DNA of 49,703 nucleotides from an uncultured virus (IMG/VR IMGVR_UViG_3300027672_001707) (IMGVR_UViG_3300027672_001707); one strand, 5' to 3'; counted from the stretch's first letter, positions 7,075 through 49,631 are shown. The notes: generated by a model not told the origin, from the sequence alone. Made by a program: numbers and translations.

Positions 7075-7081
7075 GATAAAA

Positions 7082-33551: not shown

Positions 33552-33968
33552 ATGGCATATTCAGATAAGGTGATGGACCATTACGAAAACCCTCGTAATG
33601 TAGGTAGGTTCGATGACACAGACGGAAGCATTGGAACAGGAATGGTGGGAGCACCTGCTTGTGGTGATGTAATGCGTTTGCAAATTAAAGTTGATAAGAA
33701 TGGCATCATAGAAGATGCTAAATTTAAAACATATGGATGCGGTAGTGCTATTGCCAGCAGTAGTTTATTAACTACAATGGTAAAAGGAATGTCGTTAGGA
33801 CAAGCAGGTAAGATTACAAATACTGAACTTGCTACCGAACTTGCATTGCCTCCAGTAAAGATTCACTGTAGTGTGTTGGCAGAAGATGCCATCAAAGCCG
33901 CAGTGTTGGATTATCAAGGAAAGAATCCTGAGCAAGAAAAAACAGGCAATTATTATGAGATCAAGTAA
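33552..33968 (+). CDS. iscU: Fe-S cluster scaffold
   Basis: YSDKVMDHYENPRNVG, APACGD, GCGSAIAS and LPPVKIHC. Confidence 0.97.
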   Translation: MAYSDKVMDHYENPRNVGRFDDTDGSIGTGMVGAPACGDVMRLQIKVDKNGIIEDAKFKTYGCGSAIASSSLLTTMVKGMSLGQAGKITNTELATELALPPVKIHCSVLAEDAIKAAVLDYQGKNPEQEKTGNYYEIK

Positions 33969-34051: not shown

Positions 34052-34468
34052 ATGATGGACTCAGTACTACTATTACCTGCCGCTTTATTTCCGGCAATAC
34101 CCTTAATGATGATATCTTTTGGTAACCGTTATACATCTTTGGCTACATTAATTCGTAAGATACACGACGAACTAATGTCTAAGAAGTTAAGTAAAAAGGA
34201 TAAAGCAACAAATAGATACTTAAAACAAATAACTGTACTACGAAAACGTTTAGGACTTAATAGGGCAACATCAACATTGGCGGCATTTGCATTTATATGC
34301 AACTTATTTGCTATGTACTTTGCTTTTATTAAGTCATTTTCTATATTCAGTCTATTGTTTACAAGTAGTTTAGTTATATTTGGATTAGCAATATTATTAT
34401 ATGCAGTTGAATTGCAATTCGCCACTAAAGCATTAGATACACACTTACAAGATTTAGAGGACTTATAA
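34052..34468 (+). CDS. DUF2721-like membrane protein
   Basis: PAALFPAIPL...NRY..LA.LIR..H...QI..LR.R; start 34052 after AAGGA. Confidence 0.75.
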   Translation: MMDSVLLLPAALFPAIPLMMISFGNRYTSLATLIRKIHDELMSKKLSKKDKATNRYLKQITVLRKRLGLNRATSTLAAFAFICNLFAMYFAFIKSFSIFSLLFTSSLVIFGLAILLYAVELQFATKALDTHLQDLEDL

Positions 34469-35205
34469 TGGACGAAAGTAAACTAGTATTTTTTACAGGT
34501 GCACCTGGTAGTAAATGGAGTGCAGTTGCACACATAATGGCACAAAGTAAAAAGTATCTATTCGATACCGGAGACTATGCTGAAGATAGACAGTACGCAC
34601 ACTACAACGATCCCGATATTATCCCACATCGTGGTAGTTATTTTGGTCCAGGTTTTCCATTCGGTGATAGTTTCGATGCATTGGATCGCTTATCTAAGAA
34701 AGAGATATTCGAAGAGATTGAAAGAGCATGGATCACTACCAACGACGGATACAAAATTATCAAGTGTCATCAATTTAGTATCGACTTACCTAAAATCTAT
34801 AAGATGTTCCCAAACAGTAAGTTTGTTATTGTTTATAGATCAGATGAAAAGTGCGAGGAAGGTTGGTTTGGGGCAGGTGGGTTTGATATTCCGTATCCTA
34901 GATACAAAGAAGGATACACTAACAAAGAAACAATGATTAAAGCAATGGCCCATGAGAATAGACACAATCTAATGTTTATTCATGAAAACAAATTAACTAT
35001 GAATGTATGTAATGAAGGCTATTGGAAGAATGTCTTTAATGTCGACACAGACGATAGTATAATTAAAAAGTATATTAGAATGGTCGAAGGTGTTCCGTTA
35101 ACATTGGATTCTAAAAAGTTAGAACTTAAAAACGAAGATGGTTATTCTATGATGGTTAGTAATCAGAAACTAGATACGTTTATAGCAACCATGGGTTTCG
35201 AATAA
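34468..35205 (+). CDS. P-loop/sulfotransferase-like protein (paralog 2)
   Basis: FFTGAPGSKWS, HRGSYFGP, IIKCH, FPNSKFVIVYR and GGFDIPYP. Confidence 0.55.
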   Translation: MDESKLVFFTGAPGSKWSAVAHIMAQSKKYLFDTGDYAEDRQYAHYNDPDIIPHRGSYFGPGFPFGDSFDALDRLSKKEIFEEIERAWITTNDGYKIIKCHQFSIDLPKIYKMFPNSKFVIVYRSDEKCEEGWFGAGGFDIPYPRYKEGYTNKETMIKAMAHENRHNLMFIHENKLTMNVCNEGYWKNVFNVDTDDSIIKKYIRMVEGVPLTLDSKKLELKNEDGYSMMVSNQKLDTFIATMGFE

Positions 35206-35899
35206 ACTTAATAACTTTATCAAAGTTATCATCATTAAAAGTTAAATTAAACTTATCACAGACCTTTTGGAAGTTTTCTTCAACAAAAAACTTATCCGGG
35301 TCTGTTATTATGACATCCTCTTCTGTAACATTACGACTGTAGTTGTCTACTACACGTTCTAAATGTTCAAGCATATTCATATAATTTCCCTCATATAAAT
35401 CAAAGAATGTTTTATCTGGATTCTCTGGATCAACATAATACTTGGCACTTGTTTGACAGAACCTTGCAAGTAGTCTAGACATATCTTTAGGTATAACTAC
35501 AATGTGTTTAGCAGGACCAAAAAACTCTTTAGTTTTATCCAAAGGTCCATGTAATGCATACATTAAATTAGAGGGAGACACACGTTGTTTCCAGTCGTTT
35601 ATGGGCTCATATTTGCCCGTACGCTGTGTTTGTCTGTTCGCCATATCAAGTACAGGGGGAACAGTATATTCGTCTAAACCATGTCCTTTAGAGCCATTAA
35701 AGCGTCTATTCCAATGATATATAGTAAAATTGTTATCAGTACCATGGAGATGATTTTCCCTATAAGGCTTCCATGGTTCTGTGCCATTAGCACTATGATT
35801 ATACCATTCAACATTATCGCAACTAGCCAATAGTCTGCCAATTTGATGTCCTTTTGCTCCCATTGGAGCACTTATTACAATTAGGTTATTTTCTGCCAT
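35180..35899 (-). CDS. Hypothetical protein, possibly sulfotransferase-like
   Basis: IVISAPMGAKGHQIGRLL N-terminal loop. Confidence 0.5.
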   Translation of the reverse strand: MAENNLIVISAPMGAKGHQIGRLLASCDNVEWYNHSANGTEPWKPYRENHLHGTDNNFTIYHWNRRFNGSKGHGLDEYTVPPVLDMANRQTQRTGKYEPINDWKQRVSPSNLMYALHGPLDKTKEFFGPAKHIVVIPKDMSRLLARFCQTSAKYYVDPENPDKTFFDLYEGNYMNMLEHLERVVDNYSRNVTEEDVIITDPDKFFVEENFQKVCDKFNLTFNDDNFDKVIKFIRNPWLL

Positions 35900-36596
35900 T
35901 ATAAAATAATACGTTCTTATGTTGTTCGACTAAGTCACCTGTTTTAAACCAATCATCATACACACAGATATTGCCTTTAACAGATAACTCGTTCCATTCA
36001 CTTATTTGGTAATCACAGTAGAATCTATCACCTAGTACAGGCATTGATCCCTTTAGATCCACTTTGCTTTCATATTCTTCTATCTTGCCTAAACTTCCAA
36101 ATACTGTATTGATTGCACAAGGACCTACTTCTGTCATTCCCCAGTTACACATAAACGTTGCACCTCTGTTAACAAACGCCTTAATAAGATGCCATGGAAC
36201 AATGTCACTGCCACAAGTTATCCAAACATTGGATAAGTCCATGTCCTTAAAGCCCTTTGTTTTCATAATTGCTTCGCCATGTGCAGGTATGATGTGTGTA
36301 TGCGTGTACTTGTGTACTTCTTTAACCCAACGATATGGATTAAAGTCATCAAATACAACTTCGGCTCCTAAACGAATTGCTGGTAAACTTTGTGCAAGTA
36401 GTCCGCCGGCGTGTGTAGTCTTACACACTGTATAAACTTTAGACTTGCTTGTAAGTCGCTGACTGTCTATAGCGGCTTCGTCACCTGCTTTTAGTTTAGC
36501 AACTGTTTGTTCTATAGGTTTAGGTTTGCCTGTTGTTCCGCTAGAACATATAGTCGTACCCTCGTTGATAATATCTTGTAACTTGTTGATTTCCAT
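35886..36596 (-). CDS. Minimal ANL-family adenylation (AMP-binding) enzyme
   Basis: SSGTTGKPK, WGMTE and FKTGDL...GRK; lacks the usual N- and C-terminal subdomains. Confidence 0.8.
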   Translation of the reverse strand: MEINKLQDIINEGTTICSSGTTGKPKPIEQTVAKLKAGDEAAIDSQRLTSKSKVYTVCKTTHAGGLLAQSLPAIRLGAEVVFDDFNPYRWVKEVHKYTHTHIIPAHGEAIMKTKGFKDMDLSNVWITCGSDIVPWHLIKAFVNRGATFMCNWGMTEVGPCAINTVFGSLGKIEEYESKVDLKGSMPVLGDRFYCDYQISEWNELSVKGNICVYDDWFKTGDLVEQHKNVLFYNGRK

Positions 36597-36608: not shown

Positions 36609-36818
36609 TTATGCTTTTTGTAGGTTTACTGCCGATGATCCTCGTTGACCTTCTTCAACCTCAAACGATAATGTATCGCCTTCATTTAGTCCGTCCATTC
36701 CTGAACTTCTTACTGCTGAAGAATGTACAAATACATCCTTTTCTTTGTCGTCTCTTTCAATAAATCCGTAGCCTTTAACGCCATCGAACCATTTTACTTT
36801 TCCTGTTATTGTTGTCAT
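36609..36818 (-). CDS. cspA: Cold-shock protein
   Basis: GKVKWF..KGYGFI, DVFVH and AVNL. Confidence 0.95.
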
Positions 36819-37121
36819 TTATTCCTTTGTTTTTTGTTTGTTGTTTTCTTTGTTGATCTTTGTTCTTAAACTATCCCACGCTTTATGCGTAGGGACAAAG
36901 TCGTATAACTTCTCGTCATATTTTAATCTTAATTCTAATAACTTAAAGTCGAATAAGGGTGGACAGATTGCGTGTAGGATACTTGCTATACATAATACAA
37001 ACAAACTCCATGCTTCAATTAAACTTACTCTGGCGTGTTTAAAATATAACACTATCCCATTTGTACCTTTATTGCCACCATGTTTTTCTGCTTCTCTTAG
37101 ATGATTCCAATTAAACCACAT
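36819..37121 (-). CDS. Hypothetical protein (DUF6356-like)
   Basis: HL...YFKH...ILHAICPPLF. Confidence 0.6.
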   Translation of the reverse strand: MWFNWNHLREAEKHGGNKGTNGIVLYFKHARVSLIEAWSLFVLCIASILHAICPPLFDFKLLELRLKYDEKLYDFVPTHKAWDSLRTKINKENNKQKTKE

Positions 37122-37665
37122 TAGCTCGTACCTCCATGTACTTCTCTTTGTTTAGTTTCCACACACTTTGTCTTGTAAAGTATAACTCCATATCATTATG
37201 ATGTTCTACCATACCCAACACTTTTAAACGTTGGAACAATCTGTGTGTCTTATTCATTTTCCCACTAGCATCATTGTTCATGTTAGTAGTAATATAGATG
37301 TCTTTGTCTTCACCTATAAATTCTATTTGTTTAGGTAATATGTATCTCCAAGTTAAAGCATTCATATGATACTTGCTTAACCCTAGTCCATAGTTACCAG
37401 GAATCTGTACGCCTCTAAACATAACTCTCCAGGCGTTTTCGTTTACTTCAGGCAATGGGTGGCATCCTGCCAAACTTAATATGTCTCCATACCCTGCTTC
37501 TAATCCACCATGAGAAACACAATGCCATATACCGCCTTGTTGGCGTAGCCATTCGTATTTCATTGCTGAGAATGTATTGTTCATATACCCAAGTCCTTCA
37601 CACTTCTTACAGAAGTTACTTAGGCTTAAATCCATCTCTGGTGTTAATTCTTTAATTTGAAACAT
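37111..37665 (-). CDS. Hypothetical protein, possible GNAT fold
   Basis: ILSLAGCH...AWRVMFRG...YITTN; likely start ATG 37665. Confidence 0.55.
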   Translation of the reverse strand: MFQIKELTPEMDLSLSNFCKKCEGLGYMNNTFSAMKYEWLRQQGGIWHCVSHGGLEAGYGDILSLAGCHPLPEVNENAWRVMFRGVQIPGNYGLGLSKYHMNALTWRYILPKQIEFIGEDKDIYITTNMNNDASGKMNKTHRLFQRLKVLGMVEHHNDMELYFTRQSVWKLNKEKYMEVRANVV

Positions 37666-37760
37666 TAGTGAGTGTTGGGTGTTGCTTTGAATAGCGTATT
37701 GTCGCAAGTTTCTGTCTTGGTACTATCTCTATTTTCATCTCTACTATAGTGCGTGATCAT
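37665..37760 (-). CDS. 31-aa hydrophilic peptide (not in ORF track)
   Basis: MITHYSRDENRDSTKTETCDNTLFKATPNTH; starts 4 nt after the sufE stop and is TAATG-coupled to the next gene. Confidence 0.35.
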   Translation of the reverse strand: MITHYSRDENRDSTKTETCDNTLFKATPNTH

Positions 37761-37763
37761 AAT

Positions 37764-38165
37764 TTATAGTCTTTCTATCTTGCTTTGTATTACTCCGATT
37801 AGATTGTAGAGACCATTACGTCTCTGTGGTGTAACTAATTGTGTGAAGCCCAGAGGTTCTAGGTCTTCCATTTTCATACTGAGTGCTTCTTCTTTATTGC
37901 TACCTGTAAAGATATCACAAACTATTGTTGTTATTCCTTTAGGGATTAAAGCATCACTGTCGTAATAAATGTTTATACCATCTTCTTTCAGTCCTACTTC
38001 GACCCAGATCTTACTAATACATCCTGGGACTAATCTTTCATCAGTTCGCAATTCACTAGGGAGGGTTGTTGCTCGTCGAGCAAGGTCAACAAGATAAGAT
38101 AATCTTTCTTGTCCTTCTAACATGGATAAGTCGTCTGCCCAAGTCTTAATTTTTGATTGGATCAT
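37764..38165 (-). CDS. sufE: Cysteine desulfuration protein SufE
   Basis: VPGCISKIW, DSDALI.KG and TPQRRNGL. Confidence 0.92.
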   Translation of the reverse strand: MIQSKIKTWADDLSMLEGQERLSYLVDLARRATTLPSELRTDERLVPGCISKIWVEVGLKEDGINIYYDSDALIPKGITTIVCDIFTGSNKEEALSMKMEDLEPLGFTQLVTPQRRNGLYNLIGVIQSKIERL

Positions 38166-38514
38166 TTAACACCTGTGTCTCACCTTGTTCGAAAAAGTCT
38201 TCCTCACGCCAATCATCATAAAATTCTGCATTGGTATAATAAGGATTATTGAAAGCGGGATCATCTACACCGACTACACTTTTAACTTCTTGTATGTAAT
38301 GTTTAAGCATATTCTCAACACCCATTTTAAGTGTCATCATACTACTTGCACAGCCTGAACAACTTCCGCTCATTAGCATTGTTGCTTGTCCAGTTTCCAT
38401 ATCAAAGTCTTCGAGTGTAACAGTTCCACCATGTTGTGCTACATTAGGTTGTACATATTCTTCTACAACTTTTTTAATCTCAACTATTATTTCTTCTTTT
38501 GTTTTGTCTGTCAT
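38146..38514 (-). CDS. nfuA: NifU/NfuA C-terminal domain Fe-S carrier
   Basis: VQPNVAQHGG, MSGSCSGCASS and TLKMGVE. Confidence 0.9.
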   Translation of the reverse strand: MTDKTKEEIIVEIKKVVEEYVQPNVAQHGGTVTLEDFDMETGQATMLMSGSCSGCASSMMTLKMGVENMLKHYIQEVKSVVGVDDPAFNNPYYTNAEFYDDWREEDFFEQGETQVLNDPIKN

Positions 38515-38659
38515 GTTTTTTACTCTGTTGATTGATCGGGCGTTTACTTGATGGATTTGTTCCGTAAGTTTTAGTTAACTTACTAAACGATTCGTCGTCC
38601 ATTCCCGCGAATATTCCTTTCGGATCTCTTTGTTTTCGTTTGTCGTCGTTGTTACTCAT
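38480..38659 (-). CDS. 59-aa basic/hydrophilic peptide (not in ORF track)
   Basis: MSNNDDKRKQRDPKGIFAGMDDESFSKLTKTYG...; ATGA overlap with the upstream radical SAM stop. Confidence 0.45.
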   Translation of the reverse strand: MSNNDDKRKQRDPKGIFAGMDDESFSKLTKTYGTNPSSKRPINQQSKKHDRQNKRRNNS

Positions 38660-39762
38660 TCTTTCCTTTTTGGAATCTTACTGTCTGCACTAGATACACA
38701 CGAGTTTGAAATACAAGGCATCGGTTTATTAAATAACTTAAACCCTGTTTCGATATTTCCTAGTGGACTGTCACTGCAACTATAACTTCTCTTAATTGAG
38801 CCGTCTGGTTCTCTTATTATAATTCCTTGGAACCCTGCATTGCATTGCCAACCAGTAAATTTATTAAAATTAAACGCATTAAAGCGTTCTGCTTGATCCA
38901 TGTACCATTTCTTGCCTTTATTATCTTCAAACTCTACTTGAAAATGCTGAGGTACTGTTCCATTGTCCAATTTCATTTCTGGTAAAGGCTTCCAATTGGG
39001 CTTTGGTCTACTAACGTATTTATTTTTAATCTCAGTATATGCACGTTGTGGCATATCATTATACAGTTTTTGCTTCATTTCCTCTGTATAACCATCAACG
39101 ACTCTACTTGCAGTTGGATCACTCATAGGCTTTAAAGTTACGTTAATGTTCTGATTATGAAAGAACAATGCATTCTCATAATACTTGTCAAATACTTCTG
39201 GAACCATAACCATATTAATAGTTACTTGTACATCATGTTCTTGACATAGTATAAGTTTGTTTGCAAGGTCCTGCATTTTCTCAGGTGTGTCGACGTGTTC
39301 AACGTGTAGACTACAAGTAATACTAGCACGGTGAAACTTACTTGCGTAATCGACATACGTTTCAAACCACTTCATGTTACGACTACAATTACTAGTCATG
39401 TGTACACTTGTGTAGTTTGTATTGTGAGCATCGTCACTTAAATGTTTTAAAATATCTAAGTAACCAGGATGAAAAGTTGGCTCGCCTCCACTTAAACTAA
39501 AATGAAAACTATTAAAGCCATTGTCTCTTGCCTGTCTCTTAATTTCGTCAATAGTTGATAGACATAGTTCCGTAGGTCTATGGTCTTTTCTATCACTACG
39601 AGCATAGGGCCAACAATAAGAACATTTGTAGTTACAAAATCTTCCTAGTAGCCAACTAACTGTAAAAATATCTCTATGAAGTAAAGTACGTTGCCCAACA
39701 CTAACTAAATCGTCAAAGGGTATAGCACTAAAGTCATATTCACTTGTTTTTAAATCAGTCAT
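38656..39762 (-). CDS. Radical SAM protein with C-terminal SPASM/twitch-like domain
   Basis: CNYKCSYC, SGGEPT; C-terminal CNAG...DGSIKRSYSC...LGNI...CISNSC. Confidence 0.9.
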   Translation of the reverse strand: MTDLKTSEYDFSAIPFDDLVSVGQRTLLHRDIFTVSWLLGRFCNYKCSYCWPYARSDRKDHRPTELCLSTIDEIKRQARDNGFNSFHFSLSGGEPTFHPGYLDILKHLSDDAHNTNYTSVHMTSNCSRNMKWFETYVDYASKFHRASITCSLHVEHVDTPEKMQDLANKLILCQEHDVQVTINMVMVPEVFDKYYENALFFHNQNINVTLKPMSDPTASRVVDGYTEEMKQKLYNDMPQRAYTEIKNKYVSRPKPNWKPLPEMKLDNGTVPQHFQVEFEDNKGKKWYMDQAERFNAFNFNKFTGWQCNAGFQGIIIREPDGSIKRSYSCSDSPLGNIETGFKLFNKPMPCISNSCVSSADSKIPKRKE

Positions 39763-40105
39763 CTAATCTACTTTTTATTAAGTTTTTAATCATTACTCTG
39801 TCGTTTGCTGTAGAGAAGCCGCCTTCCTTACTTGTTTGTAAGAACGGTTTGCCACACATTTGTTTACAACTATCCATTGGAGCATCTGTAAAACTTTGTT
39901 CTATCATGTAACTTGCTTCACTACGATTAATTTCATCCATTGTGCCGTTTGAGATATGCAGTTGTTCTATTTTATCTCCAAGTAAATTTTTTAAGTCGAA
40001 CCACGGAGACTCGCCGCCGAAGTGACAACAAGGTCCAACATATCCATCTACTCTTAGGATAGGTGGCTGGTCATCTCTGTATTTACATTTAGGGTAAATA
40101 GGCAT
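39755..40105 (-). CDS. Stand-alone SPASM/twitch-like Fe-S domain
   Basis: PKC...VDGYVGPCCH...CKQMC; own AAGGAG RBS. Confidence 0.75.
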   Translation of the reverse strand: MPIYPKCKYRDDQPPILRVDGYVGPCCHFGGESPWFDLKNLLGDKIEQLHISNGTMDEINRSEASYMIEQSFTDAPMDSCKQMCGKPFLQTSKEGGFSTANDRVMIKNLIKSRLDD

Positions 40106-40808
40106 CTATCTCTCCTTTAATGTCGTTCCACTGTTTACTCTTTAATCTCATATGTTCTGGTGTTCTGCCATCTCCAACAAATATACGCAACGTGTTTGCC
40201 TTTAAGTCTTGTGCGAGTTTACAAACATCTAGTGTTTGGTGATAGTTGTGTTCGAATATAAGATGTCTTACATCTACTTCAGCATCACTATCTATTTCAT
40301 TTATACTCGTCTTTAAAGCCTTAAAGCCATCTATAACTGTATTCCACTTTGAGTTAATTCTATAAATCTTATTTGTATCTTCTAGTCCATCAATAGTAAA
40401 CTCAACTCTATCTCTACCTCGTAGTAGTTTACCTAGTTTACTCCACCAATCTTTAGAACGACCACTGCCGTTAGTATGTAAATTAATCCAAGGACGTTTA
40501 TCTAAAGTATTTAAGTAATGCACTTGTTCTAAAAACGATCCACTGTATATAGGATCTCCTAATGTAAGACTATATGTTATACGTTTAATATTATTCTCAG
40601 GACGAACTAACAGTTTAAAATTATCTAAACTCATATCCATAATAGGATACATAAGTTCACTCTCACCTGCATCATACTTTGCTTTAGTCTTTGTTCTAGA
40701 GCAACCAGGACATAAGCAGTTACATCTTGTGCTGGATTCTATTTGTATTCTAAACCCACCTTCCAAATATACTGAATTGTTAAGTCCTTCGTATCCTTCT
40801 TTAATCAT
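40089..40808 (-). CDS. Radical SAM core domain protein (no C-terminal SPASM)
   Basis: CNCLCPGC, LGDP, HTNG, FTIDGL and FEHN.HQ; likely start 40808. Confidence 0.88.
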   Translation of the reverse strand: MIKEGYEGLNNSVYLEGGFRIQIESSTRCNCLCPGCSRTKTKAKYDAGESELMYPIMDMSLDNFKLLVRPENNIKRITYSLTLGDPIYSGSFLEQVHYLNTLDKRPWINLHTNGSGRSKDWWSKLGKLLRGRDRVEFTIDGLEDTNKIYRINSKWNTVIDGFKALKTSINEIDSDAEVDVRHLIFEHNYHQTLDVCKLAQDLKANTLRIFVGDGRTPEHMRLKSKQWNDIKGEIDAYLP

Positions 40809-42129
40809 TGTCGAACAATCGTTTGTATCTAGGAGCAACATCGAGTATACTTTGGTTTCTTGATATGTCTAAATACTTTGTAAACTTCTTAAACTCAGGT
40901 AATGCATCAGAGTAATCTTCTGATTTACAATATTGTAACACACTATCTAGTATTTTGCAAGCCTTTTCTGTCTGTAAATCAGTAAACTCTCCTTCGAAAA
41001 TCTTCTTCCAACCTGTATAAAATAATTCTAATTCGTCTTTCATATCCTCAGGAAGTAACCTAATGTTAGCACGTCTGGGTCCATGTGCAACATGGTGAGT
41101 TATAACAGGTCTCTTTAATGTACTATTAATCTTCTTCCACCCACTAGCATTAACTTTCCATAACATAAACTCCGGCAAGTGCCATATATTGTTTACTGTT
41201 ACTGTATAAGCGATCCATGCCATTACGTTGCTGTTCTCTTGGCAGAACTTATCTAACTTATCTAAATTCTTCTTTGCTTGTTCCCATTTAATTGGATAAC
41301 GTTGATACTCTAGTACTTTGCCCATACCATCTATACTAGCACCAACTCTTACTTCTTTAAAATGTTTCCAATACTCTAATACTCTATCAGGCAATGCTGT
41401 CATGTTAGTATTGTATTCAATTAATATATTCTTAGCAACACCTTTCTTTACACACTTCTCTAGGAACTCGTAATGTCTTTCGATCATCATAGGTTCGCCG
41501 CCTGCCATATAAACGTGTCGAATATTATCTAAATTCTTTTCAATGTTATTCCAAAAACTAGTAGAGCCATGCCAACTATAATCATCAGTGTCTAGCCTAC
41601 CTTTTGCATTACGTTCAAGTTTAACATAACCATGTGTGTCTTGGAAGCCATCTTCTTTATGATAGTCTGTCCACTGTTCATACCAACTATGACTATCTGT
41701 TGGTCCACACATCCTACATTGTAGATTGCATAAGTTACCAAACCGTAAATCATAATAAACAACAGGAGAATTGCTAGTATCAATAGTTCCATCTTCTGAT
41801 GTCAACACTTGTGCTTGTCGTATATCAAATTCTTTCCATGTTTGCAATTCGTATTGACGTCTACTGTTAAGTCCTACGTCTTCTTCTTGCTTACAACGAG
41901 TACATTCGTCGCTCCACTTACCTTCAAGCATATTCTTTCGAACTGCTTTCATTAAGTCTGCATTACGAGCCTGCTTCATACTATGCTTACCTGCATTATA
42001 CGGAGTGCCGTCTTTATGTCTAACTACACCTTGATTCTTTGTTACGTTTGCTTGACAGCAAATACGAATGTCGCCATTATTTCTAATAGCCTGAAAGTTC
42101 CAAGGTATTGGACAAAATGTTTTACTCAT
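40801..42129 (-). CDS. Radical SAM protein with N-terminal twitch-like domain
   Basis: CPIPW...ICC...CTRC, then CNLQCRMC, AGGEP, YNTN and SIDG. Confidence 0.92.
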   Translation of the reverse strand: MSKTFCPIPWNFQAIRNNGDIRICCQANVTKNQGVVRHKDGTPYNAGKHSMKQARNADLMKAVRKNMLEGKWSDECTRCKQEEDVGLNSRRQYELQTWKEFDIRQAQVLTSEDGTIDTSNSPVVYYDLRFGNLCNLQCRMCGPTDSHSWYEQWTDYHKEDGFQDTHGYVKLERNAKGRLDTDDYSWHGSTSFWNNIEKNLDNIRHVYMAGGEPMMIERHYEFLEKCVKKGVAKNILIEYNTNMTALPDRVLEYWKHFKEVRVGASIDGMGKVLEYQRYPIKWEQAKKNLDKLDKFCQENSNVMAWIAYTVTVNNIWHLPEFMLWKVNASGWKKINSTLKRPVITHHVAHGPRRANIRLLPEDMKDELELFYTGWKKIFEGEFTDLQTEKACKILDSVLQYCKSEDYSDALPEFKKFTKYLDISRNQSILDVAPRYKRLFDND

Positions 42130-43220
42130 GCATTACTCCATAATTCCGCTGAACATTTTTCAACGCATCTTTTAATTCTTGGATTTGATTTATCATGTAT
42201 ACTGTTGTTAAAACTTTCGTCGAGGTCTTTCCAGTATGGATGATCAAAAACTTCTTGTATTGTATGTATATTTAAGTTATTCCAATCGATGCCATATTTG
42301 TCAATGTAATATTGATACTCTTTATGTTTAAAGTTCTTTGTTCTACCATATTTTCCACCAATATGACAACATTGATATATTCTACCATCGTAGTCTATTT
42401 GTATCATCTTACGTCTTTGCCATGGACAACGGACTGTACTTGTATCATAAAAGTTTTCAGTATCACTTACAATACTTTTTATATGAGTTTCTAAAACATT
42501 TCTTGTAGCCTTATCCATTGAATCTATTTCAATATGTTCTTTTTTCTTTGTTGCTTGTCCAGTTACCTTATAAGATTTATTATCTAAAGTTTCTTCAATT
42601 ACTCTTGTTTTATTCCTTGTTGCTTTCAAATAAAATCTTTGAAATCCTAATTCTTTTGCTAGTTGTCTTGCTTGTTCAACTTGATGTGTATTATGGTCGA
42701 ACTCTAAAAACTTCCATGTAGCAACACCTCCACCTGCCATAAATGCTGTTGCGTTATCTATAATTTTATTGTAATCTAAGTTACGTCTATATATTCCGTG
42801 TGTTTCAAAGTCTACTCCATCTATACCAAACTTAATATGCTCCGGTCTCCTATTAAGATGTGTGGATAATAACTTTCCTAACTTATACCACCAGTCTGTG
42901 TCATTATAAGATCCATTAGAATTAATCTCGATATTAGTTCCTGGAAACTCATTACAATAGTATTCCATAAACTCGTAACTCTGTGGGTGTATTAAACTAT
43001 CACCAAAGTTACCATCTAGTTCTAACTTCTTAAAGTTAGGTAATGTCTTTTTGTTAAGTATACTTTTAAATAATTCAAAGCTCATGTTTCCTGCTTTACC
43101 AAACTCTACATATGGATTAAGTTTTACTCCATCAATGTTTCTAGCACAATCTAAACACATGGCATTACAATTACTTGTAATTTCTAATTGTATTGATTCT
43201 AAATCTTGTAATTTAATCAT
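42126..43220 (-). CDS. Radical SAM protein with C-terminal SPASM-like domain
   Basis: CNAMCLDC, GNFGD, FGIDG and GRIYQCCH...CVEKC. Confidence 0.92.
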   Translation of the reverse strand: MIKLQDLESIQLEITSNCNAMCLDCARNIDGVKLNPYVEFGKAGNMSFELFKSILNKKTLPNFKKLELDGNFGDSLIHPQSYEFMEYYCNEFPGTNIEINSNGSYNDTDWWYKLGKLLSTHLNRRPEHIKFGIDGVDFETHGIYRRNLDYNKIIDNATAFMAGGGVATWKFLEFDHNTHQVEQARQLAKELGFQRFYLKATRNKTRVIEETLDNKSYKVTGQATKKKEHIEIDSMDKATRNVLETHIKSIVSDTENFYDTSTVRCPWQRRKMIQIDYDGRIYQCCHIGGKYGRTKNFKHKEYQYYIDKYGIDWNNLNIHTIQEVFDHPYWKDLDESFNNSIHDKSNPRIKRCVEKCSAELWSNA

Positions 43221-44724
43221 TACTAATGCCTAAGTGTTTTTTAATATGAACTGCAAGTTCAGGATAAACTTCTTCAAAGTTTTCTCCTCTACTTTCATCT
43301 AAAATGCGTGTACGTCTCCACATTTCAGGTAGTTCCTCTACTGTACTTCGTGCATTCATAAATTGTAACATACTATTCAATTGTTTGCAAGTGATTTCAT
43401 ATAAAGCATCAGGGCCATTGTCCCAATCTCTTGTAATCTTACCATGGTTTCTCATTTCATAATTACTGTTAGACATTTTATAGTCTCTAGGCTTACTATC
43501 ACACCATTCTTTAAACCAACCATTCATCCAATCAGTTATATACTTTGTTACATACTCTTTTGCAGGGTCTGGCAGACTAGTTACACAATAATATGCAGGA
43601 TTATGCACAGGGTGATATGTAAAGAAAGCACTTTGACTATATCGATTAAACTTAACAAAGTCTTGCTCTAAACAATACTCTATAATGTCTGTAACACTTA
43701 ACACATTTAATATTTGCCAGGTGTATGTTAACCAACACGTTACATTATCTTCTGTTTGGGTATCTAATTTTGTTATGTTCTCTTTTATCTGTGTCCACTT
43801 ACTTGGATACCTAACGTAGTCGTTTACTTTATCGATACCGTCTACACTTCCACCAATGTTAACCTGTCTAAAGTGTTTCCATTGATCTAATGCACGTTGT
43901 GGAATACTTGTAAAGTTTGTATTGTAATCGATCTCTAAGTCTTTTGCAGTACCATTATCGATATACTGTTGTAATACTTCGTACTGTTGATTAATGATTA
44001 AAGGTTCGCCTCCACTCATATATATTTGTTTTAAGTGAGGTGCATCTTTCTGAAGTATCTCTGCAACATCGATTCTGTCGCTCCAGCCATATGGACTCTT
44101 ACCAACTATTTTAGCTCGGCTACCTTGCATTTCTAAATTAACAGTGTGGTCATACGCTTTAAACTTTTTGTATCCTGTTGTCTTCATCCATTCAGTGTAC
44201 CATTGATGACTCTCAGTAGGCCCACACATACGACACTTCAAGTTACAAGTGTTATCTAAACGTAAGTCTAAGTCTAATAATGGATATTCCTCTGTGTCTA
44301 TGCTACCATCTTTGGCTGTATTCTCTATTGCATCGTCGATGTCAAACTCTTGCCAATACTTCTTTAAGTCAAGCCAACGTCGGCTGTTACTACCAGCATC
44401 ATCTTCTCTGTTACAACGAACGCAATGATCACTTCTCTTGCCTGCAATCATATCACGTCTTGTTTCTTTCATTACTTCGCTGTTACGACTATCGGCAATG
44501 CTAGTGTCTTCGATACGCATAGTAACACCGTCAGGGCCTTTACATTGTCCTCTGATGTTATTTTTTCTATTAGCCGCGGCTTGAACACACATACGATAGT
44601 CACCGTTGTTATTAACTCCTAGACTAACCCAGGGTATAGGACAAAAGCCTGAACAACCTTTATCTTTTATACTCTGTTCGTAATGTTCTGGATCTTTATA
44701 ATGTGTTCTGTCGAAGTGTTTCAT
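43213..44724 (-). CDS. Radical SAM protein with N-terminal twitch-like domain
   Basis: CPIPW...MCV...CVRC, then CNLKCRMC, SGGEP, YNTN and SVDG. Confidence 0.92.
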   Translation of the reverse strand: MKHFDRTHYKDPEHYEQSIKDKGCSGFCPIPWVSLGVNNNGDYRMCVQAAANRKNNIRGQCKGPDGVTMRIEDTSIADSRNSEVMKETRRDMIAGKRSDHCVRCNREDDAGSNSRRWLDLKKYWQEFDIDDAIENTAKDGSIDTEEYPLLDLDLRLDNTCNLKCRMCGPTESHQWYTEWMKTTGYKKFKAYDHTVNLEMQGSRAKIVGKSPYGWSDRIDVAEILQKDAPHLKQIYMSGGEPLIINQQYEVLQQYIDNGTAKDLEIDYNTNFTSIPQRALDQWKHFRQVNIGGSVDGIDKVNDYVRYPSKWTQIKENITKLDTQTEDNVTCWLTYTWQILNVLSVTDIIEYCLEQDFVKFNRYSQSAFFTYHPVHNPAYYCVTSLPDPAKEYVTKYITDWMNGWFKEWCDSKPRDYKMSNSNYEMRNHGKITRDWDNGPDALYEITCKQLNSMLQFMNARSTVEELPEMWRRTRILDESRGENFEEVYPELAVHIKKHLGISND

Positions 44725-45853
44725 AGTGTTCGCTTATATCATTGATATTTGTTTTTCTAATTCTATCTAGCATATCGTTATGTTCAAAGAACATAGCAAC
44801 TTCTTTTTCTGGTATGCCTTTTGCTTTTTTAGTAGTGTGATGTCTAACTGCTTTTAAAACTTTATCCATTGGCATACTATCGATTTTGTCTACTACAATT
44901 TGTTTGTATTCCTCAGGTAAATTAGATACCATTTGATAAGTGGGCCAAGTACAATCAATAATATTAAAGTTAATGTCTATACCATATTCTCGTTGCATAG
45001 TTTCTTTTATTTCTAACAACTCTGGATACCACTGATCAATAGTAAAACAGTCATAGACACTAAACACAATATTAGAACCAATGTTTCTAATGTTATTAAT
45101 CTTTTTAGGCATTAACATAATATTTTCTTTAATTTTATGCCAATTGGCGCCTGTTCTAATATAGTCGTATGTTTTGCCTGTGCCATCTAAACTTAATTGA
45201 ATCTTTGTTGTTTTAAATTGTTTAACTGCTTTAATCCAATTTTCATTTATGTTTGTTGCATTTGTTGTGTAACGCAAATTAATATTCTTTGCGTATCCAT
45301 TACTAATTGTCCACTCTAGTAATTTTTGTACTTGTGGATCAATAGTTGGTTCACCGCCTAATATTTTTAATACTTCTAAATCTCTAAAGGTTTCATCATT
45401 GCAAATACTTGGTAATAATTCCGATTCGTATTCAGGTATTGTCTCCATAAATTTTTTCAATTCAGGATGTTTTTTTGTTTCTTTATCGATTAAACTACTG
45501 TTACTAGAATGACACATTCTACATTTTAAGTTACATAAGTTTCCTGGTCTATAATCTAACCATTTAAGTTCAAACTTACTTGTATCTAATTTGTCAACTT
45601 CTAAATGTTTATTAAATGTTTCTCTATCACTTTCAAGACCCGCGTTTTCTAATTTGTGACAAAGTGTACAACCTTCATGCCATTCTCCGTTAAGCATTTT
45701 CTCCCTAACAGATTCTACCATTGGCGAGTTGTAATAATCTTCAGGACTTTCTGCTTTAGTCCATTTTTTAAAACTACAACACATTTTGTATTTGCCCATA
45801 CTTTCTTTATAGTATGTTGCTTGCCAAGGTGCTGAACAAATTGTATTTTTCAT
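44696..45853 (-). CDS. Radical SAM protein with N-terminal twitch-like domain
   Basis: CSAPW...MCC...CTLC, then CNLKCRMC, LGGEP, YTTN and SLDG. Confidence 0.92.
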   Translation of the reverse strand: MKNTICSAPWQATYYKESMGKYKMCCSFKKWTKAESPEDYYNSPMVESVREKMLNGEWHEGCTLCHKLENAGLESDRETFNKHLEVDKLDTSKFELKWLDYRPGNLCNLKCRMCHSSNSSLIDKETKKHPELKKFMETIPEYESELLPSICNDETFRDLEVLKILGGEPTIDPQVQKLLEWTISNGYAKNINLRYTTNATNINENWIKAVKQFKTTKIQLSLDGTGKTYDYIRTGANWHKIKENIMLMPKKINNIRNIGSNIVFSVYDCFTIDQWYPELLEIKETMQREYGIDINFNIIDCTWPTYQMVSNLPEEYKQIVVDKIDSMPMDKVLKAVRHHTTKKAKGIPEKEVAMFFEHNDMLDRIRKTNINDISEHYETLRQNTL

Positions 45854-46593
45854 TATTTTACCACCTTAATTACATCGTCGAACACAGGACGAGGGTATAC
45901 TTTTTCTACATTAACTGGCTTAAACGGAATTAGTTTTGTTTTATCTATTCTAGGATCGAAGTACTCGTGCTTTATACTAGCATCTTTTCCATACCCAACT
46001 CCCATTATAAATCTAAAGTCTAGGTTTTTAACATCACTATCGATATCGAATATCTCTTCCGCTCTAGTGTAATCTCTTTGTATGTTTTGACACATACCAG
46101 TTTGTATTCCTCTATTAGCCATTGCTAACATAATATAAGTAGACATAATACCTATTTCAATATTTTCTGTTTGCATTTGTCCTCGTTCACTACCAGCACG
46201 ATTTTGTATTTTTGCTTTTCTTTCTCTAGTGCCTACTTCCGGAAGTTCAAACGTGTCTAGGCCTCTTGTTGAGTCTGATTCGTATCTCGACTCTAAGTCT
46301 GCTACATATCTAGAACAAAATCCTATAAGCCACGGAGCAAGTACTTGAGGATTTCCTAGATCTTCTTCATCTGTTTTGTGTTCGTTTCGTTTACAAATAG
46401 TCATTATTTCTTTGCTTATCGCAGGATCATTATTCCTTAAAAGTCTTACTTGATAAGGAAACTGTAAATTTTTAGATGGTATATGTGCGAATACCTCCTG
46501 CAGAACGTCCACAAGTTCTTCCTCTGTTGGTATCTTATCTTCTTCCCAAGCAAACGTTGTGTGCCTGTTGTTTATTATATCAAGCCATTCCAT
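45853..46593 (-). CDS. Nitroreductase-family (FMN-binding) protein
   Basis: IINNRHT..F, PSKNLQFPY, APW, GI....MLA....GIQTG and MGVGY. Confidence 0.7.
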   Translation of the reverse strand: MEWLDIINNRHTTFAWEEDKIPTEEELVDVLQEVFAHIPSKNLQFPYQVRLLRNNDPAISKEIMTICKRNEHKTDEEDLGNPQVLAPWLIGFCSRYVADLESRYESDSTRGLDTFELPEVGTRERKAKIQNRAGSERGQMQTENIEIGIMSTYIMLAMANRGIQTGMCQNIQRDYTRAEEIFDIDSDVKNLDFRFIMGVGYGKDASIKHEYFDPRIDKTKLIPFKPVNVEKVYPRPVFDDVIKVVK

Positions 46594-47858
46594 TACATAT
46601 ACCTCTCTAGTTGTGGTACAAAATCTAACACATTTGTATTCCTAATTTTATCTAATGCTTTTGTATGTCTTACATACCTTGCCTTTTCGTACTCTACATC
46701 TAATTTTTGGTTTAATTCTGTTTTTAAAACTTTTAATTTCTTTTCAATATCGTTATTGTTAGCATAACGTTTAAGTAATATGTCTAACTTGCTTTGAATA
46801 ATTTGTTTATGATCTTCATCTAACCAACCAACACACAAATACATAGGATCAACTAACGGCAGTAAGTTAATTCCTTTAAACTTATCCCCGCCTGCTTCTT
46901 TGCCTATTTCATATAATTCACTATACCATTCGTCAATATTGAAAGCATTAGTAACTTGCATAACTGCATTAATGCCTTGCCATTGTAAATTCTTTATTTT
47001 AAATATGTCTTTAAAGTTTGTGATACACTTGTCGTAGTTAGAATTTGTTCTTAAGTATTCATTTAGCGATCCACTTGCGTCAAAACTTGTATTGATGGTT
47101 AACACCTTAAACTGTTCTAGCACAGGTCTTAACTTAATAGGATTAACTGTACCGTTAGTAAGCAGGTGTAAGTTTATACCTTTTGCATAACCTGTATCTG
47201 CCACACGTTGTAACATTCTAATAACACGTTTATCTACTAGTGTCTCTCCGCCAGACATTTTTAACCATTTAACATTATCTAAATCAAAATTACTCACGAT
47301 ATCAAAGTCATCACTTTCCCAGTCGATGCTGTTAACAATATCCATTGACTTTTTGTTTTGTGTAATGGTATCCCAATACCATTCTTTGCCTTGTATCTCT
47401 GGATTTGCTAAAACTTCTTTTTCAATCTTATCACTCCAAACAGTATTACAACTTCTGCATTTTAGATTGCATAGTTTACCAGGACGTAAATCAATATCTA
47501 ATGGCTTGTTATGTTTGTTGCCGTTTACAATATCTAACTCAAGTTCTTCAAAGTCTAGTTTATTTTCATAACGTTCGAGTAATTGTATTCTTTGACTTTC
47601 AGCGATGTTGTCTTTTTCTTCGTGTTCCTTACAATACCAACAAGCCTTGGGAAACTCTCCTTGCATAAAAGACTTTCTTGTGTCTTGCATCACCTCTCCA
47701 TTCCAAAACTCTTGGAAAGTGTCTTGCAAAGGCTTTGTTCCATCAAACCTGCCCACAATATCACTCATGCAACATAGTTTATGAGCTCTATTGTTTGCAT
47801 TAATGTATCCATGTACAAAGGGAGCCGGGCAGAAGTTTTTCTTATCTTTAAGCATCAA
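46593..47858 (-). CDS. Radical SAM protein with N-terminal twitch-like domain
   Basis: CPAPF...LCC...CWYC, then CNLKCRSC, SGGET, LTNGT and SFDA. Confidence 0.92.
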   Translation of the reverse strand: MMLKDKKNFCPAPFVHGYINANNRAHKLCCMSDIVGRFDGTKPLQDTFQEFWNGEVMQDTRKSFMQGEFPKACWYCKEHEEKDNIAESQRIQLLERYENKLDFEELELDIVNGNKHNKPLDIDLRPGKLCNLKCRSCNTVWSDKIEKEVLANPEIQGKEWYWDTITQNKKSMDIVNSIDWESDDFDIVSNFDLDNVKWLKMSGGETLVDKRVIRMLQRVADTGYAKGINLHLLTNGTVNPIKLRPVLEQFKVLTINTSFDASGSLNEYLRTNSNYDKCITNFKDIFKIKNLQWQGINAVMQVTNAFNIDEWYSELYEIGKEAGGDKFKGINLLPLVDPMYLCVGWLDEDHKQIIQSKLDILLKRYANNNDIEKKLKVLKTELNQKLDVEYEKARYVRHTKALDKIRNTNVLDFVPQLERYM

Positions 47859-48921
47859 TTGATCCGCATTTTGAAATACATCTGTTTATTCTAGGGTTTT
47901 CAGTTGCATCTGTTCTGTTATTAAAACTGTCTGTTAAGTCGTGCTGGAAGTATTGGTGATTTAATATATCCATTATTCCGTGTTCGTCTAAACTGTTCCA
48001 GTTAGTGTTGTATTTATTTGTATAATATTCATATTCTTTATAAATCTCAGTGCCAGGTTGTTGGTAATTATAGTACCCAGGTAAATGACAGCATTGATAT
48101 ATTCTGCCACTGTGTTCTACTTGAAATCCATAGTTCTTTTCCCTACGGAACCTACAATGTATTGTACTATCGTTAGCAAAGTCTTTAACACTTTTAATTT
48201 CTTTCTTTGCTTGTGCAACTATCTCTTGACTAATTGTACTGTTAACATTCTTACTCGTAGCACTAACACCCTTGTCTAAGTCTTGTAGACCCATTGCTTC
48301 ACGTATAATACTATGTCTTACTCTAGTATTTTTATATATAAACGCACTGAACCCCATTTCTTTACTCATACGTTTAGCATCTTCCAATTGGTGATCATTA
48401 TAATCAAAGCCAATCCATTTCCATTCAGCGTTGCCACCATTATCGATAAACGCTTTAGCATTTTCAAATACTTTGTTTAAGTCTACTCTTACTCTGTACC
48501 TGGCATGCATTTCTGGATCTATTCCATCGATGCCGAATGTAATACAACTTGTAGGATGAAAACGTTTCATTAAGTCGCCCAACTTTGTCCAAAACTCAGG
48601 CTTCTTGTAGCCTCCATTGGAATCAATGTATAACTTAATCTTAGATGCATCTTGTGTGTCAGCGATGTATTCCAATAATTCTAAACTGTGTGGGTGATAC
48701 ATACTGTCACCATAGTTGCCATCAATATTAAGTTTTCTTAAATTGGGCCATTTGATACCAAAAAGATTCTTCATATGGTCCATTGTTATTTGTCTACTAC
48801 CATGAGGAGTTATTCCACTGTTAACAAAGTGCTGTGTTCTTGCACAAGCAGGACATCTGGCATTACAAGCCGATGTAAACTCTATCATCATGTAGTTAAT
48901 TTTATCTATGTCTAAAGCCAT
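47848..48921 (-). CDS. Radical SAM protein with C-terminal SPASM-like domain (paralog of 42126..43220)
   Basis: CNARCPAC, GNYGD, FGIDG and GRIYQCCH...CISKC. Confidence 0.92.
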   Translation of the reverse strand: MALDIDKINYMMIEFTSACNARCPACARTQHFVNSGITPHGSRQITMDHMKNLFGIKWPNLRKLNIDGNYGDSMYHPHSLELLEYIADTQDASKIKLYIDSNGGYKKPEFWTKLGDLMKRFHPTSCITFGIDGIDPEMHARYRVRVDLNKVFENAKAFIDNGGNAEWKWIGFDYNDHQLEDAKRMSKEMGFSAFIYKNTRVRHSIIREAMGLQDLDKGVSATSKNVNSTISQEIVAQAKKEIKSVKDFANDSTIHCRFRREKNYGFQVEHSGRIYQCCHLPGYYNYQQPGTEIYKEYEYYTNKYNTNWNSLDEHGIMDILNHQYFQHDLTDSFNNRTDATENPRINRCISKCGSIDA

Positions 48922-49631
48922 TTATTAATATTCACTCGTTTGAATTGTTCTGTATCACGTATTATATTTGCCAACATTAATGCCATGCCTTTATGTTGTA
49001 TATGATTTAAATGATTATTAACGTCCATAGGAGTTACCTTTTTATCAGGATCCTTTTCATCAGCAGTACAAATATCAAATAATGTTGGATGTATTGTAAC
49101 AGCGTTTTTAAAGTTAAAGTCATTTAATGTTACATCTATATAATCAAAGTCAAAGCAAAAGAAGTTAATGAATTTAATATGTGGCATACTAGGATATAAT
49201 ACTGCATCAACATACTGTAATAAGTCGTATGCTTTAGCACATTCTCTACCTTCATCAATTAAATTATACTTAATCATATTAGAAACTGTGTCTTGCTTTG
49301 CTTTAAGTTCGGGAGCGAAAATAGGTGTTTTAAAGAACTCCTCATCACAAAGTGCCGGATCGTTCATACGCCAATCTCTTACATACTCTGGAGCATACAT
49401 TCTAAATGGATGGCTCCACCCTACTATACAATATTTAATATCATTATAATAGTCTTGGTTCTTTAAATCTTTTACTTGATCTAACTGTCTCCAAAAACCA
49501 GTGCCGCCAATTGCAGTGTTATGTATTGCAAACTGTGTTGGATCTATAGCACGGTCTAGCCAATTACGTTTAGTTTTAGTAAAAAAACTATCGCCAATAA
49601 TTCGAATTACAGGATTAGGTGTGTTACTCAT
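48912..49631 (-). CDS. SGNH/GDSL-like hydrolase or acyltransferase
   Basis: IIGDSF, NTAIGGTG and C-terminal NNHLN..QH. Confidence 0.7.
   Translation of the reverse strand: MSNTPNPVIRIIGDSFFTKTKRNWLDRAIDPTQFAIHNTAIGGTGFWRQLDQVKDLKNQDYYNDIKYCIVGWSHPFRMYAPEYVRDWRMNDPALCDEEFFKTPIFAPELKAKQDTVSNMIKYNLIDEGRECAKAYDLLQYVDAVLYPSMPHIKFINFFCFDFDYIDVTLNDFNFKNAVTIHPTLFDICTADEKDPDKKVTPMDVNNHLNHIQHKGMALMLANIIRDTEQFKRVNINKWL

Follow-up and report, generated by a model that had tools for sequence, protein, structure and literature searches.

A radical SAM gene array beside tail-fibre-like and sugar-type genes in an uncultured marine T4-like phage

Three architectures in one gene array

We analysed a 49,703-nucleotide (nt) stretch of DNA from an uncultured virus (IMGVR_UViG_3300027672_001707), hereafter called the window, which carries an array of eight genes for radical S-adenosylmethionine (SAM) enzymes between positions 49631 and 38656 of its minus strand. 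The array is part of an unbroken run of minus-strand open reading frames (ORFs) that extends from 49631 down to 35180. All gene junctions between 49631 and 38656 overlap, by 1–41 nt, and each of the eight translated radical SAM genes has a CxxxCxxC motif near the start of its core. This bears out a preliminary description, made from the sequence alone, of eight intact CxxxCxxC genes with overlapping or abutting ends. Six of the eight reach or exceed the gathering score (29.5 bits) of the Pfam Radical_SAM model (PF04055). The 421-amino-acid (aa) gene has no Pfam match and scores 241 bits with the NCBIfam model NF033640, while the 364-aa gene has a sub-threshold Radical_SAM match of 19.0 bits.

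Motifs and NF033640 scores agree on three architectures, as first described: four enzymes with an N-terminal Cys-rich domain (N-twitch), three with GNxGD or LGDP motifs (type B) and one of a separate kind (type C). NF033640 (N_Twi_rSAM, "twitch domain-containing radical SAM protein") has a cut-off of 170 bits, applied to the whole protein over the full model. This score is exceeded over the full model length by four genes of the window, by six when the whole operon is counted and by eight genome-wide; the remaining four array genes, with 26.8–43.9 bits or no listed match, are not members. The window members encode proteins of 421 aa (46593–47858; CNLKCRSC; 241.1 bits), 385 aa (44696–45853; CNLKCRMC; 274.7 bits, and 41.3 bits with Pfam Radical_SAM), 503 aa (43213–44724; CNLKCRMC; 330.3 bits) and 442 aa (40801–42129; CNLQCRMC; 367.4 bits), the last being the most conserved member of the array. 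Across an alignment of 27 phage sequences, C6, C76, C79, C134, C138, C141 and G210-G211-E212 are invariant and C24 is nearly so. The C6/C24/C76/C79 domain precedes the core cysteines C134/C138/C141, and the motif reads CX13GX4C...CX2C, then CNLxCRMC and GGEP. Auxiliary clusters of the SPASM/twitch type have the signature CX9-15GX4C, and a 436-aa N-twitch paralogue upstream of the window has a Pfam SPASM match at residues 14–93. The reversed, N-terminal position of the twitch domain to which the preliminary description drew attention is therefore real, but as four genes pass the NF033640 cut-off it characterises a family that has already been curated.

In type B, DGNYGD, DGNFGD or LGDP replaces GGEP. 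The 357-aa enzyme (47848–48921) combines CNARCPAC and DGNYGD with a C-terminal Cys-rich part and matches Pfam Radical_SAM at 32.5 bits and phrog_21308 with an E-value of 5.5e-25. Its 364-aa counterpart (42126–43220) has CNAMCLDC, DGNFGD and a C-terminal CX13GX4CC...CX3C. This C-terminal part is absent from the 250-aa core (40089–40841; CNCLCPGC, LGDP; Pfam Radical_SAM 37.4 bits) and is supplied by a Cys-rich ORF of 116 aa (39755–40105) that overlaps it by 17 nt. The pattern C...G....CC...CxxxC is common to the 116-aa ORF and the C-terminal ends of the two longer type-B genes (357 and 364 aa), and 250 plus 116 aa comes close to 364 aa. The split is kept in the related loci L012 and L013 at 60–85% identity. 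The 250-aa core and the detached auxiliary-cluster part may thus be the first and second pieces of a two-piece enzyme. Type C is represented by a 368-aa enzyme (38656–39762) with CNYKCSYC, GGEP and a C-terminal four-Cys tail, which scores 50.2 bits with Pfam Radical_SAM.

A SPASM domain has seven cysteines, including a CX2CX5CX3C block. The full seven-Cys pattern (PF13186) was not seen in any of the three types, type B having only four or five of the cysteines, and the SPASM matches, of 18.1 bits for the 364-aa type-B enzyme and 16.9 bits for the 116-aa piece, stay below the cut-off of 21.5 bits. The array enzymes share a radical SAM core fold and one auxiliary four-Cys cluster domain with anSME, CteB, SkfB, BtrN-type dehydrogenases, BlsE and MoaA. 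They differ from characterised SPASM/twitch enzymes in lacking that seven-Cys pattern and, in six of the 11 operon enzymes, in placing the auxiliary domain before the core. With NF033640, a family defined by sequence only, the N-twitch enzymes share the N-terminal auxiliary-cluster motif followed by CNLxCRMC and GGEP, yet the members found here are deeply diverged paralogues. They are 18–36% identical to one another, and a tree of 113 sequences distributes the window's paralogues over distinct, old clades, several of which also contain interspersed bacterial sequences.

Searches of PDB sequences returned no match for the 442-aa N-twitch or the 364-aa type-B protein and only weak core matches for the 368-aa type-C protein. 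We found neither a characterised N-terminal-twitch enzyme nor a functional study of phage radical SAM arrays in the openly accessible literature. Both results accord with the earlier remark that no function had been characterised for such arrays.

The operon and its genome island

Two records are very similar to the window: G001 has 98% of the window's sampled words in common with it, and G002 (306,714 bp) is 99.75% identical to it over 18.9 kb. G002 encodes a T4-type Gp23 capsid protein (E 2e-99) and the window starts with a family-B DNA polymerase, which together support the assignment of the array to a phage, as had been supposed. Fourteen marine DNA runs contain at least half of the words of the stretch. 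The operon had been expected to run past the window edge, and in the nearest records it does: N-twitch (434 aa), type-B (532 aa) and N-twitch (436 aa) genes follow upstream, and then ORFs for a 324-aa aminotransferase-like protein and an 86-aa DUF1289 protein. When the near-identical record is included, the strand block measures about 20.2 kb and holds 23 ORFs of at least 60 aa and one of 59 aa, with 11 radical SAM genes among them. The label of the 324-aa protein is a lead from the ESM Atlas, where it hit viral clusters of class I/II aminotransferases (score 0.99; family present in 24–67% of members); a PDB search with it gave nothing useful.

In G004, a relative, the sequence that ends G002 is separated by no more than about 460 bp from the sequence that begins it. 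The ends of G002 therefore abut and the island upstream of the operon is continuous. A search of the adjacent genome for structural genes, suggested in the preliminary description, was successful: the preceding 40 kb encode, on the same strand, a 1606-aa virion protein and tail-fibre-like proteins of 725 and 490 aa. They also contain several DUF6071 paralogues with SGNH-type motifs and four further radical SAM genes. Sugar-type genes of the island encode a phosphomannomutase, a carbamoyltransferase, a cupin, two UDP-glucose/GDP-mannose dehydrogenase-like proteins, a heptose-1-phosphate adenylyltransferase-like protein and a fragment of DegT. The array is thus larger than first seen: the operon has 11 radical SAM genes, the island 15 and the whole genome 17, the last figure including QueE and one gene at about 107 kb. 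A RuBisCO-large-subunit-like protein is also encoded in the island (L093:1816–2952, or about 288.5–289.7 kb in G002; Pfam E 4e-35), and it could conceivably salvage 5-deoxy- or methylthio-ribose from radical SAM by-products.

We next consider how the operon may be transcribed. A perfect promoter of the sigma-70 consensus type (TTGACA-N16-TATAAT) lies about 30 nt before its first ATG, and three further perfect promoters in the same intergenic region point the opposite way. On L095, perfect TTGACA-N15-19-TATAAT matches stand at 1160 (+) and at 1146, 1019 and 788 (−). Six more perfect matches occur in the window, all on the plus strand (5961, 11701, 18721, 25742, 27752 and 31438). Four of these lie 44–60 nt before the start of a plus-strand ORF, for instance that of QueD, and the other two about 65 and about 490 nt upstream. 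By a rough estimate from base frequencies, chance would produce about 0.1 such matches per 50 kb. Several of them share an extended tail, ...TG.TATAATA.TA.ATAAGT. Inside the operon no perfect promoter was found on the operon strand, and a generic promoter and terminator scan did no better there than on shuffled sequences. The T4 late motif TATAAATA occurs once in the window where about eight occurrences are expected, and the motif TTGTCAACC is not enriched there (11 matches versus 14.6 expected). Because the operon promoter is of the same class as that before nucleotide-metabolism genes, the operon is probably transcribed early, by the host RNA polymerase and as one long unit, judging from the promoter. 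In three studies, RNA libraries yielded low-depth contigs that correspond to parts of the operon with 99–100% (X16, X17) or 90–95% (X19) identity. They are weakly compatible with transcription of the operon, since DNA carry-over is possible; parts of the operon without RNA-contig cover are uninformative either way.

Non-radical genes both interrupt and follow the array on the minus strand. A 239-aa SGNH-like protein (48912–49631) has an N-terminal IIGDSF motif, and an AlphaFold2 (AF2) model of it, with a predicted local distance difference test (pLDDT) score of 59, has GDSL/SGNH esterases as its best Foldseek matches (E 1.7e-3 or worse, TM-score up to 0.5). The first label is therefore retained only as a weak one: the GDS motif and these matches speak for it, but no match was found in Pfam, NCBIfam or PHROGs, a PDB profile search gave nothing useful and the model is of low confidence. 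A relationship to the DUF6071 paralogues was considered and rejected (hhalign probability 1.2%). This protein is the only one of the operon that is less than 99% identical to G001/G002 (93%, versus 99–100% for the others), and it is 52% identical in L013; the gene marks a local hotspot of change. A similarly weak label applies to the 246-aa nitroreductase-fold-like protein (45853–46593). All four of its PDB profile matches are to the nitroreductase superfamily, but these are weak (E 0.17–1.4) and its match to Pfam PF00881 (E 0.0077, 16.9 bits) falls below the cut-off of 23.5 bits.

Downstream of the array, the nfuA and sufE genes that had been named at the outset are confirmed by Pfam matches over the cut-offs: a 122-aa Fe-S (iron–sulfur) carrier of the Nfu type, with a NifU C-terminal domain (38146–38514; NifU E 5.5e-22, 78.1 bits), and a 133-aa SufE sulfur acceptor (37764–38165; E 1.3e-27, 96.4 bits). 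A protein of 198 aa (37111–37707), 90–91% conserved with a ratio of non-synonymous to synonymous substitution rates (dN/dS) of 0.05, had been called GNAT-like; that label was not upheld, as neither the family databases (Pfam, NCBIfam and PHROGs) nor a profile search of PDB gave a match. There follow a DUF6356-like protein of 100 aa (36819–37121; E 9.2e-5, 23.0 bits versus a cut-off of 24.4) and a cold-shock-domain protein of 69 aa (36609–36818; Pfam CSD E 4.1e-24). The adenylation gene (35886–36596) does match Pfam AMP-binding (E 1.2e-15), but only as a 236-aa core fragment of the ANL family that covers profile positions 170–331 of 384, from the P-loop to the hinge. Because it is 69–71% conserved in L012 and L013 with a dN/dS of 0.14–0.18, this short form is probably functional. 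The last gene of the strand block (35180–35899) encodes a 239-aa protein for which an ESM Atlas structure search found sulfotransferase clusters (TM-score 0.54–0.64). Sulfotransferases have a canonical PKSGTT-type loop. The loop was not seen in this sequence and Pfam and NCBIfam gave no match, which leaves the sulfotransferase-like label as a fold lead.

On the facing strand, an IscU-type Fe-S scaffold is encoded at 33552–33968 (+; Pfam NifU_N E 3e-52, 176.5 bits). On either side of this gene and of one for a DUF2721 protein lie two unannotated paralogues (32681–33550 and 34468–35205, +; 37% identity, E 3e-31), facing the operon's end. Genes of the 7-deazaguanine type also lie on the plus strand, encoding GTP cyclohydrolase I (FolE, 8791–9477), a YhhQ/Vut_1-type transporter (11025–11633), a phosphoribosyltransferase (16954–17442), a QueD-like 6-pyruvoyltetrahydropterin synthase (PTPS, 18776–19225) and a QueE-like radical SAM protein (19231–20136), which suggests preQ0-type base chemistry. 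A 999-aa protein with a subtilase domain (12580–15579, +; Pfam E 1e-31, phrog_3677 protease) is encoded amid phage metabolic genes. Finally, a MoxR-type AAA ATPase (26216–27331, +), a DUF2201 metallopeptidase and VWA protein (27811–29118, +) and ThyX (31503–32171, +) form a trio that, in two distant relatives (L015 and L019), directly adjoins the conserved radical SAM gene of 442 aa.

Comparable gene sets have been published. In 2017, a T4-like genome from the environment was described that carries 12 radical SAM genes as well as Fe-S genes (PMC5332604), and the host-recognition islands of pelagimyophages, reported in 2020, contain tail fibres, lipopolysaccharide-type genes and radical SAM cassettes in a hypervariable cluster between VrlC and gp14 (PMC7029224). 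The passages considered from the two papers give neither a function nor an enzyme classification for the radical SAM genes. As far as those passages describe them, these phages resemble ours in being marine and T4-like, in having Fe-S assembly genes alongside and in varying in content between close relatives. The pelagimyophage clusters further resemble our island in gene content, namely tail-fibre-type, rfaE-like, UDP-glucose-dehydrogenase-like and radical SAM genes; in our island the tail-fibre-like, sugar and radical SAM genes adjoin one another on one strand. The published cases differ in that our genome is much larger (306.7 kb) and in that no clear glycosyltransferase was found in our island. 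The cluster noted in the preliminary description is confirmed, but cassettes that combine radical SAM and Fe-S genes were, by the same passages, already in print for T4-like phages of marine origin.

Selection, gene exchange and relatives

We compared the operon genes with their orthologues in two relatives. Relaxed selection had been named as an observation that would count against a functional array; instead, dN/dS ranged from 0.05 to 0.47 in 35 of 36 gene pairs, dS not being computable for the remaining one, and the operon genes are under purifying selection. Among the radical SAM genes, the values were 0.05 for the 368-aa, 0.05–0.07 for the 357-aa, 0.09 for the 364-aa and 0.08–0.19 for the 421-aa gene. 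Synonymous divergence is uneven along the operon, where dS varies between 0.24 and 2.6 from one gene to its neighbours, and the gene complement is not constant, with an extra N-twitch paralogue in one relative and the 364-aa gene missing from another. Because of this variation in dS and gene content, the history of the array fits an exchange of cassettes.

Two enzymes stand out for their conservation. In distant relatives the 442-aa N-twitch enzyme retains 62–68% identity, while the remaining radical SAM genes there show no more than 22–41% to any gene of the window. The 368-aa type-C enzyme is 92–95% identical in L012 and L013 and 68–70% identical in four of the six distant loci (L015, L017, L018 and L019). 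With the 442-aa protein as query we found 1350 database homologues at E<1e-5, the top 120 of them at 62–99% identity. A megablast search of the region against 50,697 phage records gave no match, and tblastn of the 442-aa protein yielded only matches of 22–28%, in four records.

A scan of species-representative genomes identified 151 relatives in 70 loci, mostly in Bdellovibrionales and other Oligoflexia-type metagenome-assembled genomes (MAGs). N-twitch ORFs were present in 64 of these loci, with one to eight per locus and 190 in total. Our survey of neighbouring genes covers 63 loci, L084 and six ORFs of L073 having been left out as repeats.

Candidate substrates of the array

We tentatively favour, with somewhat less than even confidence, a multi-step radical tailoring of a carbohydrate-type substrate, because sugar-nucleotide genes adjoin the operon, because the bacterial neighbourhoods are biased in this direction and because of the published pelagimyophage islands (PMC7029224). 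In this reading, the eight window genes encode working radical SAM enzymes and belong to a 23-gene operon of about 20 kb, directly downstream of the island of tail-fibre-like and nucleotide-sugar genes, in a marine T4-like jumbo phage, uncultured and with a genome of about 307 kb. A SAM-cleaving [4Fe-4S] cluster is predicted for each enzyme, along with one auxiliary, twitch-type four-Cys cluster domain, which precedes the core in six of the 11 operon enzymes and lies at the C-terminal end of the rest. Together the enzymes would run successive steps of hydrogen-atom abstraction, leading to oxidation, epimerisation, deoxygenation or C-C bond formation on a nucleotide sugar or on a glycoconjugate of the envelope or virion. 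Non-radical steps may be added by the pyridoxal phosphate (PLP) aminotransferase-like, nitroreductase-fold, SGNH-like, ANL-fragment and sulfotransferase-fold proteins, and loading of the clusters, at least 22 in number, would be assisted by the phage's own Nfu, SufE, IscU and DUF1289 proteins. A fully self-sufficient support kit for these enzymes was considered but is not supported. The 306.7-kb record G002, estimated to be 87% complete, has no match at E<=0.001 to PF01048 (nucleosidase-type phosphorylase for 5'-methylthioadenosine/S-adenosylhomocysteine, MTA/SAH), PF00258 (flavodoxin) or PF00266 (class-V aminotransferase/cysteine desulfurase). Sulfur mobilisation, reduction and the disposal of 5'-deoxyadenosine would therefore fall to the host.

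The bacterial bias consists in glycosyltransferases, which lie within about two ORFs of an N-twitch gene in 13 of the 63 loci. Five more loci have a carbamoyltransferase, a CMP-sugar-type cytidylyltransferase, RmlD/TylF or a sulfotransferase as neighbours. In a Brevinematales MAG, a 736-aa fusion of GT4/GT1 and radical SAM domains (L063:7755–9965) stands directly upstream of an N-twitch gene, amid GT2 and other radical SAM genes. We asked whether the type-B enzymes are akin to this fusion; BLASTP showed no similarity.

Several observations weigh against a carbohydrate substrate. No clear glycosyltransferase was found in the 46 ORFs upstream in the island or in the 91 ORFs of five related phage loci, and the sole GT1 match in the window, at 7049–8176, is sub-threshold. 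The 13 bacterial glycosyltransferase loci are not independent, since many of them are one orthologous locus (GT2, two N-twitch genes, MFS) in related genomes, and the neighbourhood of several arrays in bacteria is uninformative, as with bare tandem runs of four to eight genes. We found no NF033640 enzyme with a tested activity. One Bdellovibrionales chromosome (L077:9403–14274) encodes, in this order, a 113-aa ORF, an N-twitch enzyme, a 277-aa protein, a YcaO protein and a nitroreductase. With its seven TSKPQNLK repeats and its ending ...GAPGCCNWGK, the 113-aa ORF is a plausible precursor, and the locus looks like a cluster for a ribosomally synthesised and post-translationally modified peptide (RiPP). 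The YcaO-linked nitroreductase showed no similarity to the nitroreductase-like protein of our operon. Structure is no more decisive. The AF2 model of the 442-aa enzyme (pLDDT 91.6) has a Cys-rich N-terminal domain and a helical C-terminus, and its Foldseek and VIA-align matches are limited to the generic radical SAM core (about 190–230 residues aligned at 12–17% identity). The VIA-align Z-scores are 12.4 for CteB, 11.5 each for viperin, BlsE and anSME, 11.4 for SkfB and 11.1 for MoaA. Peptide-modifying (CteB, anSME, SkfB) and sugar- or nucleotide-modifying (BlsE, viperin, MoaA) neighbours are effectively tied, and the fold therefore does not indicate a substrate class.

Maturation of a peptide or protein, which we regard as unlikely, is the alternative that best survives these data. 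The array would then make a RiPP-like product, or it would introduce cross-links, epimerisations or hydroxylations into virion proteins such as the tail fibres, each enzyme acting at a different residue. The best structural matches include the peptide-modifying CteB, SkfB and anSME as well as SuiB, ChlB and EpeE, although the Cys-rich end of the 442-aa model is the N-terminal one, its C-terminus being helical, and no domain of the RiPP recognition element (RRE) type was matched in Pfam or NCBIfam. Tail-fibre-like genes open the island, the N-twitch gene of L077 sits between the repeat-bearing, Cys-ended ORF and the YcaO and nitroreductase genes, and genes of the Asp/Asn beta-hydroxylase family lie beside arrays in four of the 63 bacterial loci and in the phage locus L014. 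Yet a peptide/YcaO context occurs in one of the 63 loci, as against the 13 with glycosyltransferases, and the operon encodes no protease or exporter. The search for precursor peptides recommended in the preliminary description had a mixed outcome. The gaps of the operon contain no Cys-, Ser- or Thr-rich precursor, and the 388-nt gap upstream nothing plausible. However, a small basic ORF of 59 aa (38480–38659, −) is translationally coupled to the type-C gene, whose stop it overlaps in an ATGA, and runs into the NifU start. Counterparts of 60 and 73 aa stand in the same place in L012 and L013 (39–42% identity, E 2e-9 and 4e-8) and share with it GIFAG(M/L)D..(S/A)F and NKRRNS. Against a precursor role, the 59-aa ORF has no Cys, and no counterpart was found in the more distant phage loci.

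Still less probable is a role in nucleotide or DNA chemistry, in which the array would hypermodify phage DNA or make a nucleotide-derived small molecule. The promoter of the operon belongs to the same early class as those of nucleotide genes, and the window encodes FolE, QueD, QueE and the YhhQ-type transporter of 7-deazaguanine chemistry. Clusters for thymidine hypermodification combine PLP enzymes, flavoproteins and radical SAM enzymes. The array genes do give weak, partial matches to viperin, MoaA and QueE models, but all equivalogs of nucleotide enzymes stay far below their cut-offs. For the viperin models NF038283 and TIGR04278 (cut-offs 180 and 450 bits) the best score is 41.6 bits, over residues 34–128 only of the 368-aa gene, and QueE is likewise among the known-pathway models, all of which gave 15–48 bits versus cut-offs of 180–650. 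Pfam and NCBIfam scans identified no DNA transferase, kinase or glycosylase in the operon, the same family is arrayed beside glycosyltransferases in bacterial chromosomes, and 11–15 radical steps would far exceed the needs of any known base modification. A borrowed cofactor pathway (MoaA, PqqE, NirJ/AhbC-D or tungsten-cofactor maturase, as auxiliary metabolic genes), a mapping to which the preliminary description had named as grounds for refuting its own reading, is effectively refuted: the partial NCBIfam matches reach only 15–48 bits versus cut-offs of 231–650, the best for the 364-aa gene being TIGR04317 (47.8 bits versus 380), and Pfam scans of the window and island found no MoaB-E, PqqA-D, Nir or Ahb partners.

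Returning to the carbohydrate reading, the multi-step biosynthetic cluster originally proposed for virion proteins, glycans or a small molecule stands as a conserved multi-enzyme cluster under purifying selection; as to its target, context tends to favour one of the carbohydrate type. A wider proposal, which we put forward as doubtful, is that NF033640 and the type-B and type-C enzymes form a class that edits glycans or nucleotide sugars. Carried by T4-like marine phages as cassette-shuffled arrays, expressed early from promoters of the host type and supported by the phage's own Fe-S supply, they might rewrite a surface sugar of the infected cell or virion in a dozen or more radical steps and so serve as a chemical determinant of host range or superinfection exclusion. 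The present analysis adds the continuity of the island across the ends of the record, the class of its promoter, the selection test, the higher conservation of two enzymes (442 and 368 aa), the conserved splitting of a type-B gene and the counted survey of neighbours, in which a single locus is of the peptide type.

For a virus that lives in sunlit ocean water, 17 radical SAM genes together with its own Nfu, SufE and IscU amount to an uncommonly large commitment to oxygen-sensitive chemistry. Marine metagenomes contain more than a thousand close relatives of the main family, NF033640. Discovery of its substrate would give radical SAM enzymology a new branch and would account for a variable island that recurs beside the tail-fibre genes of abundant marine phages. 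For expression, the well-conserved enzymes of 442 and 368 aa are concrete candidates.

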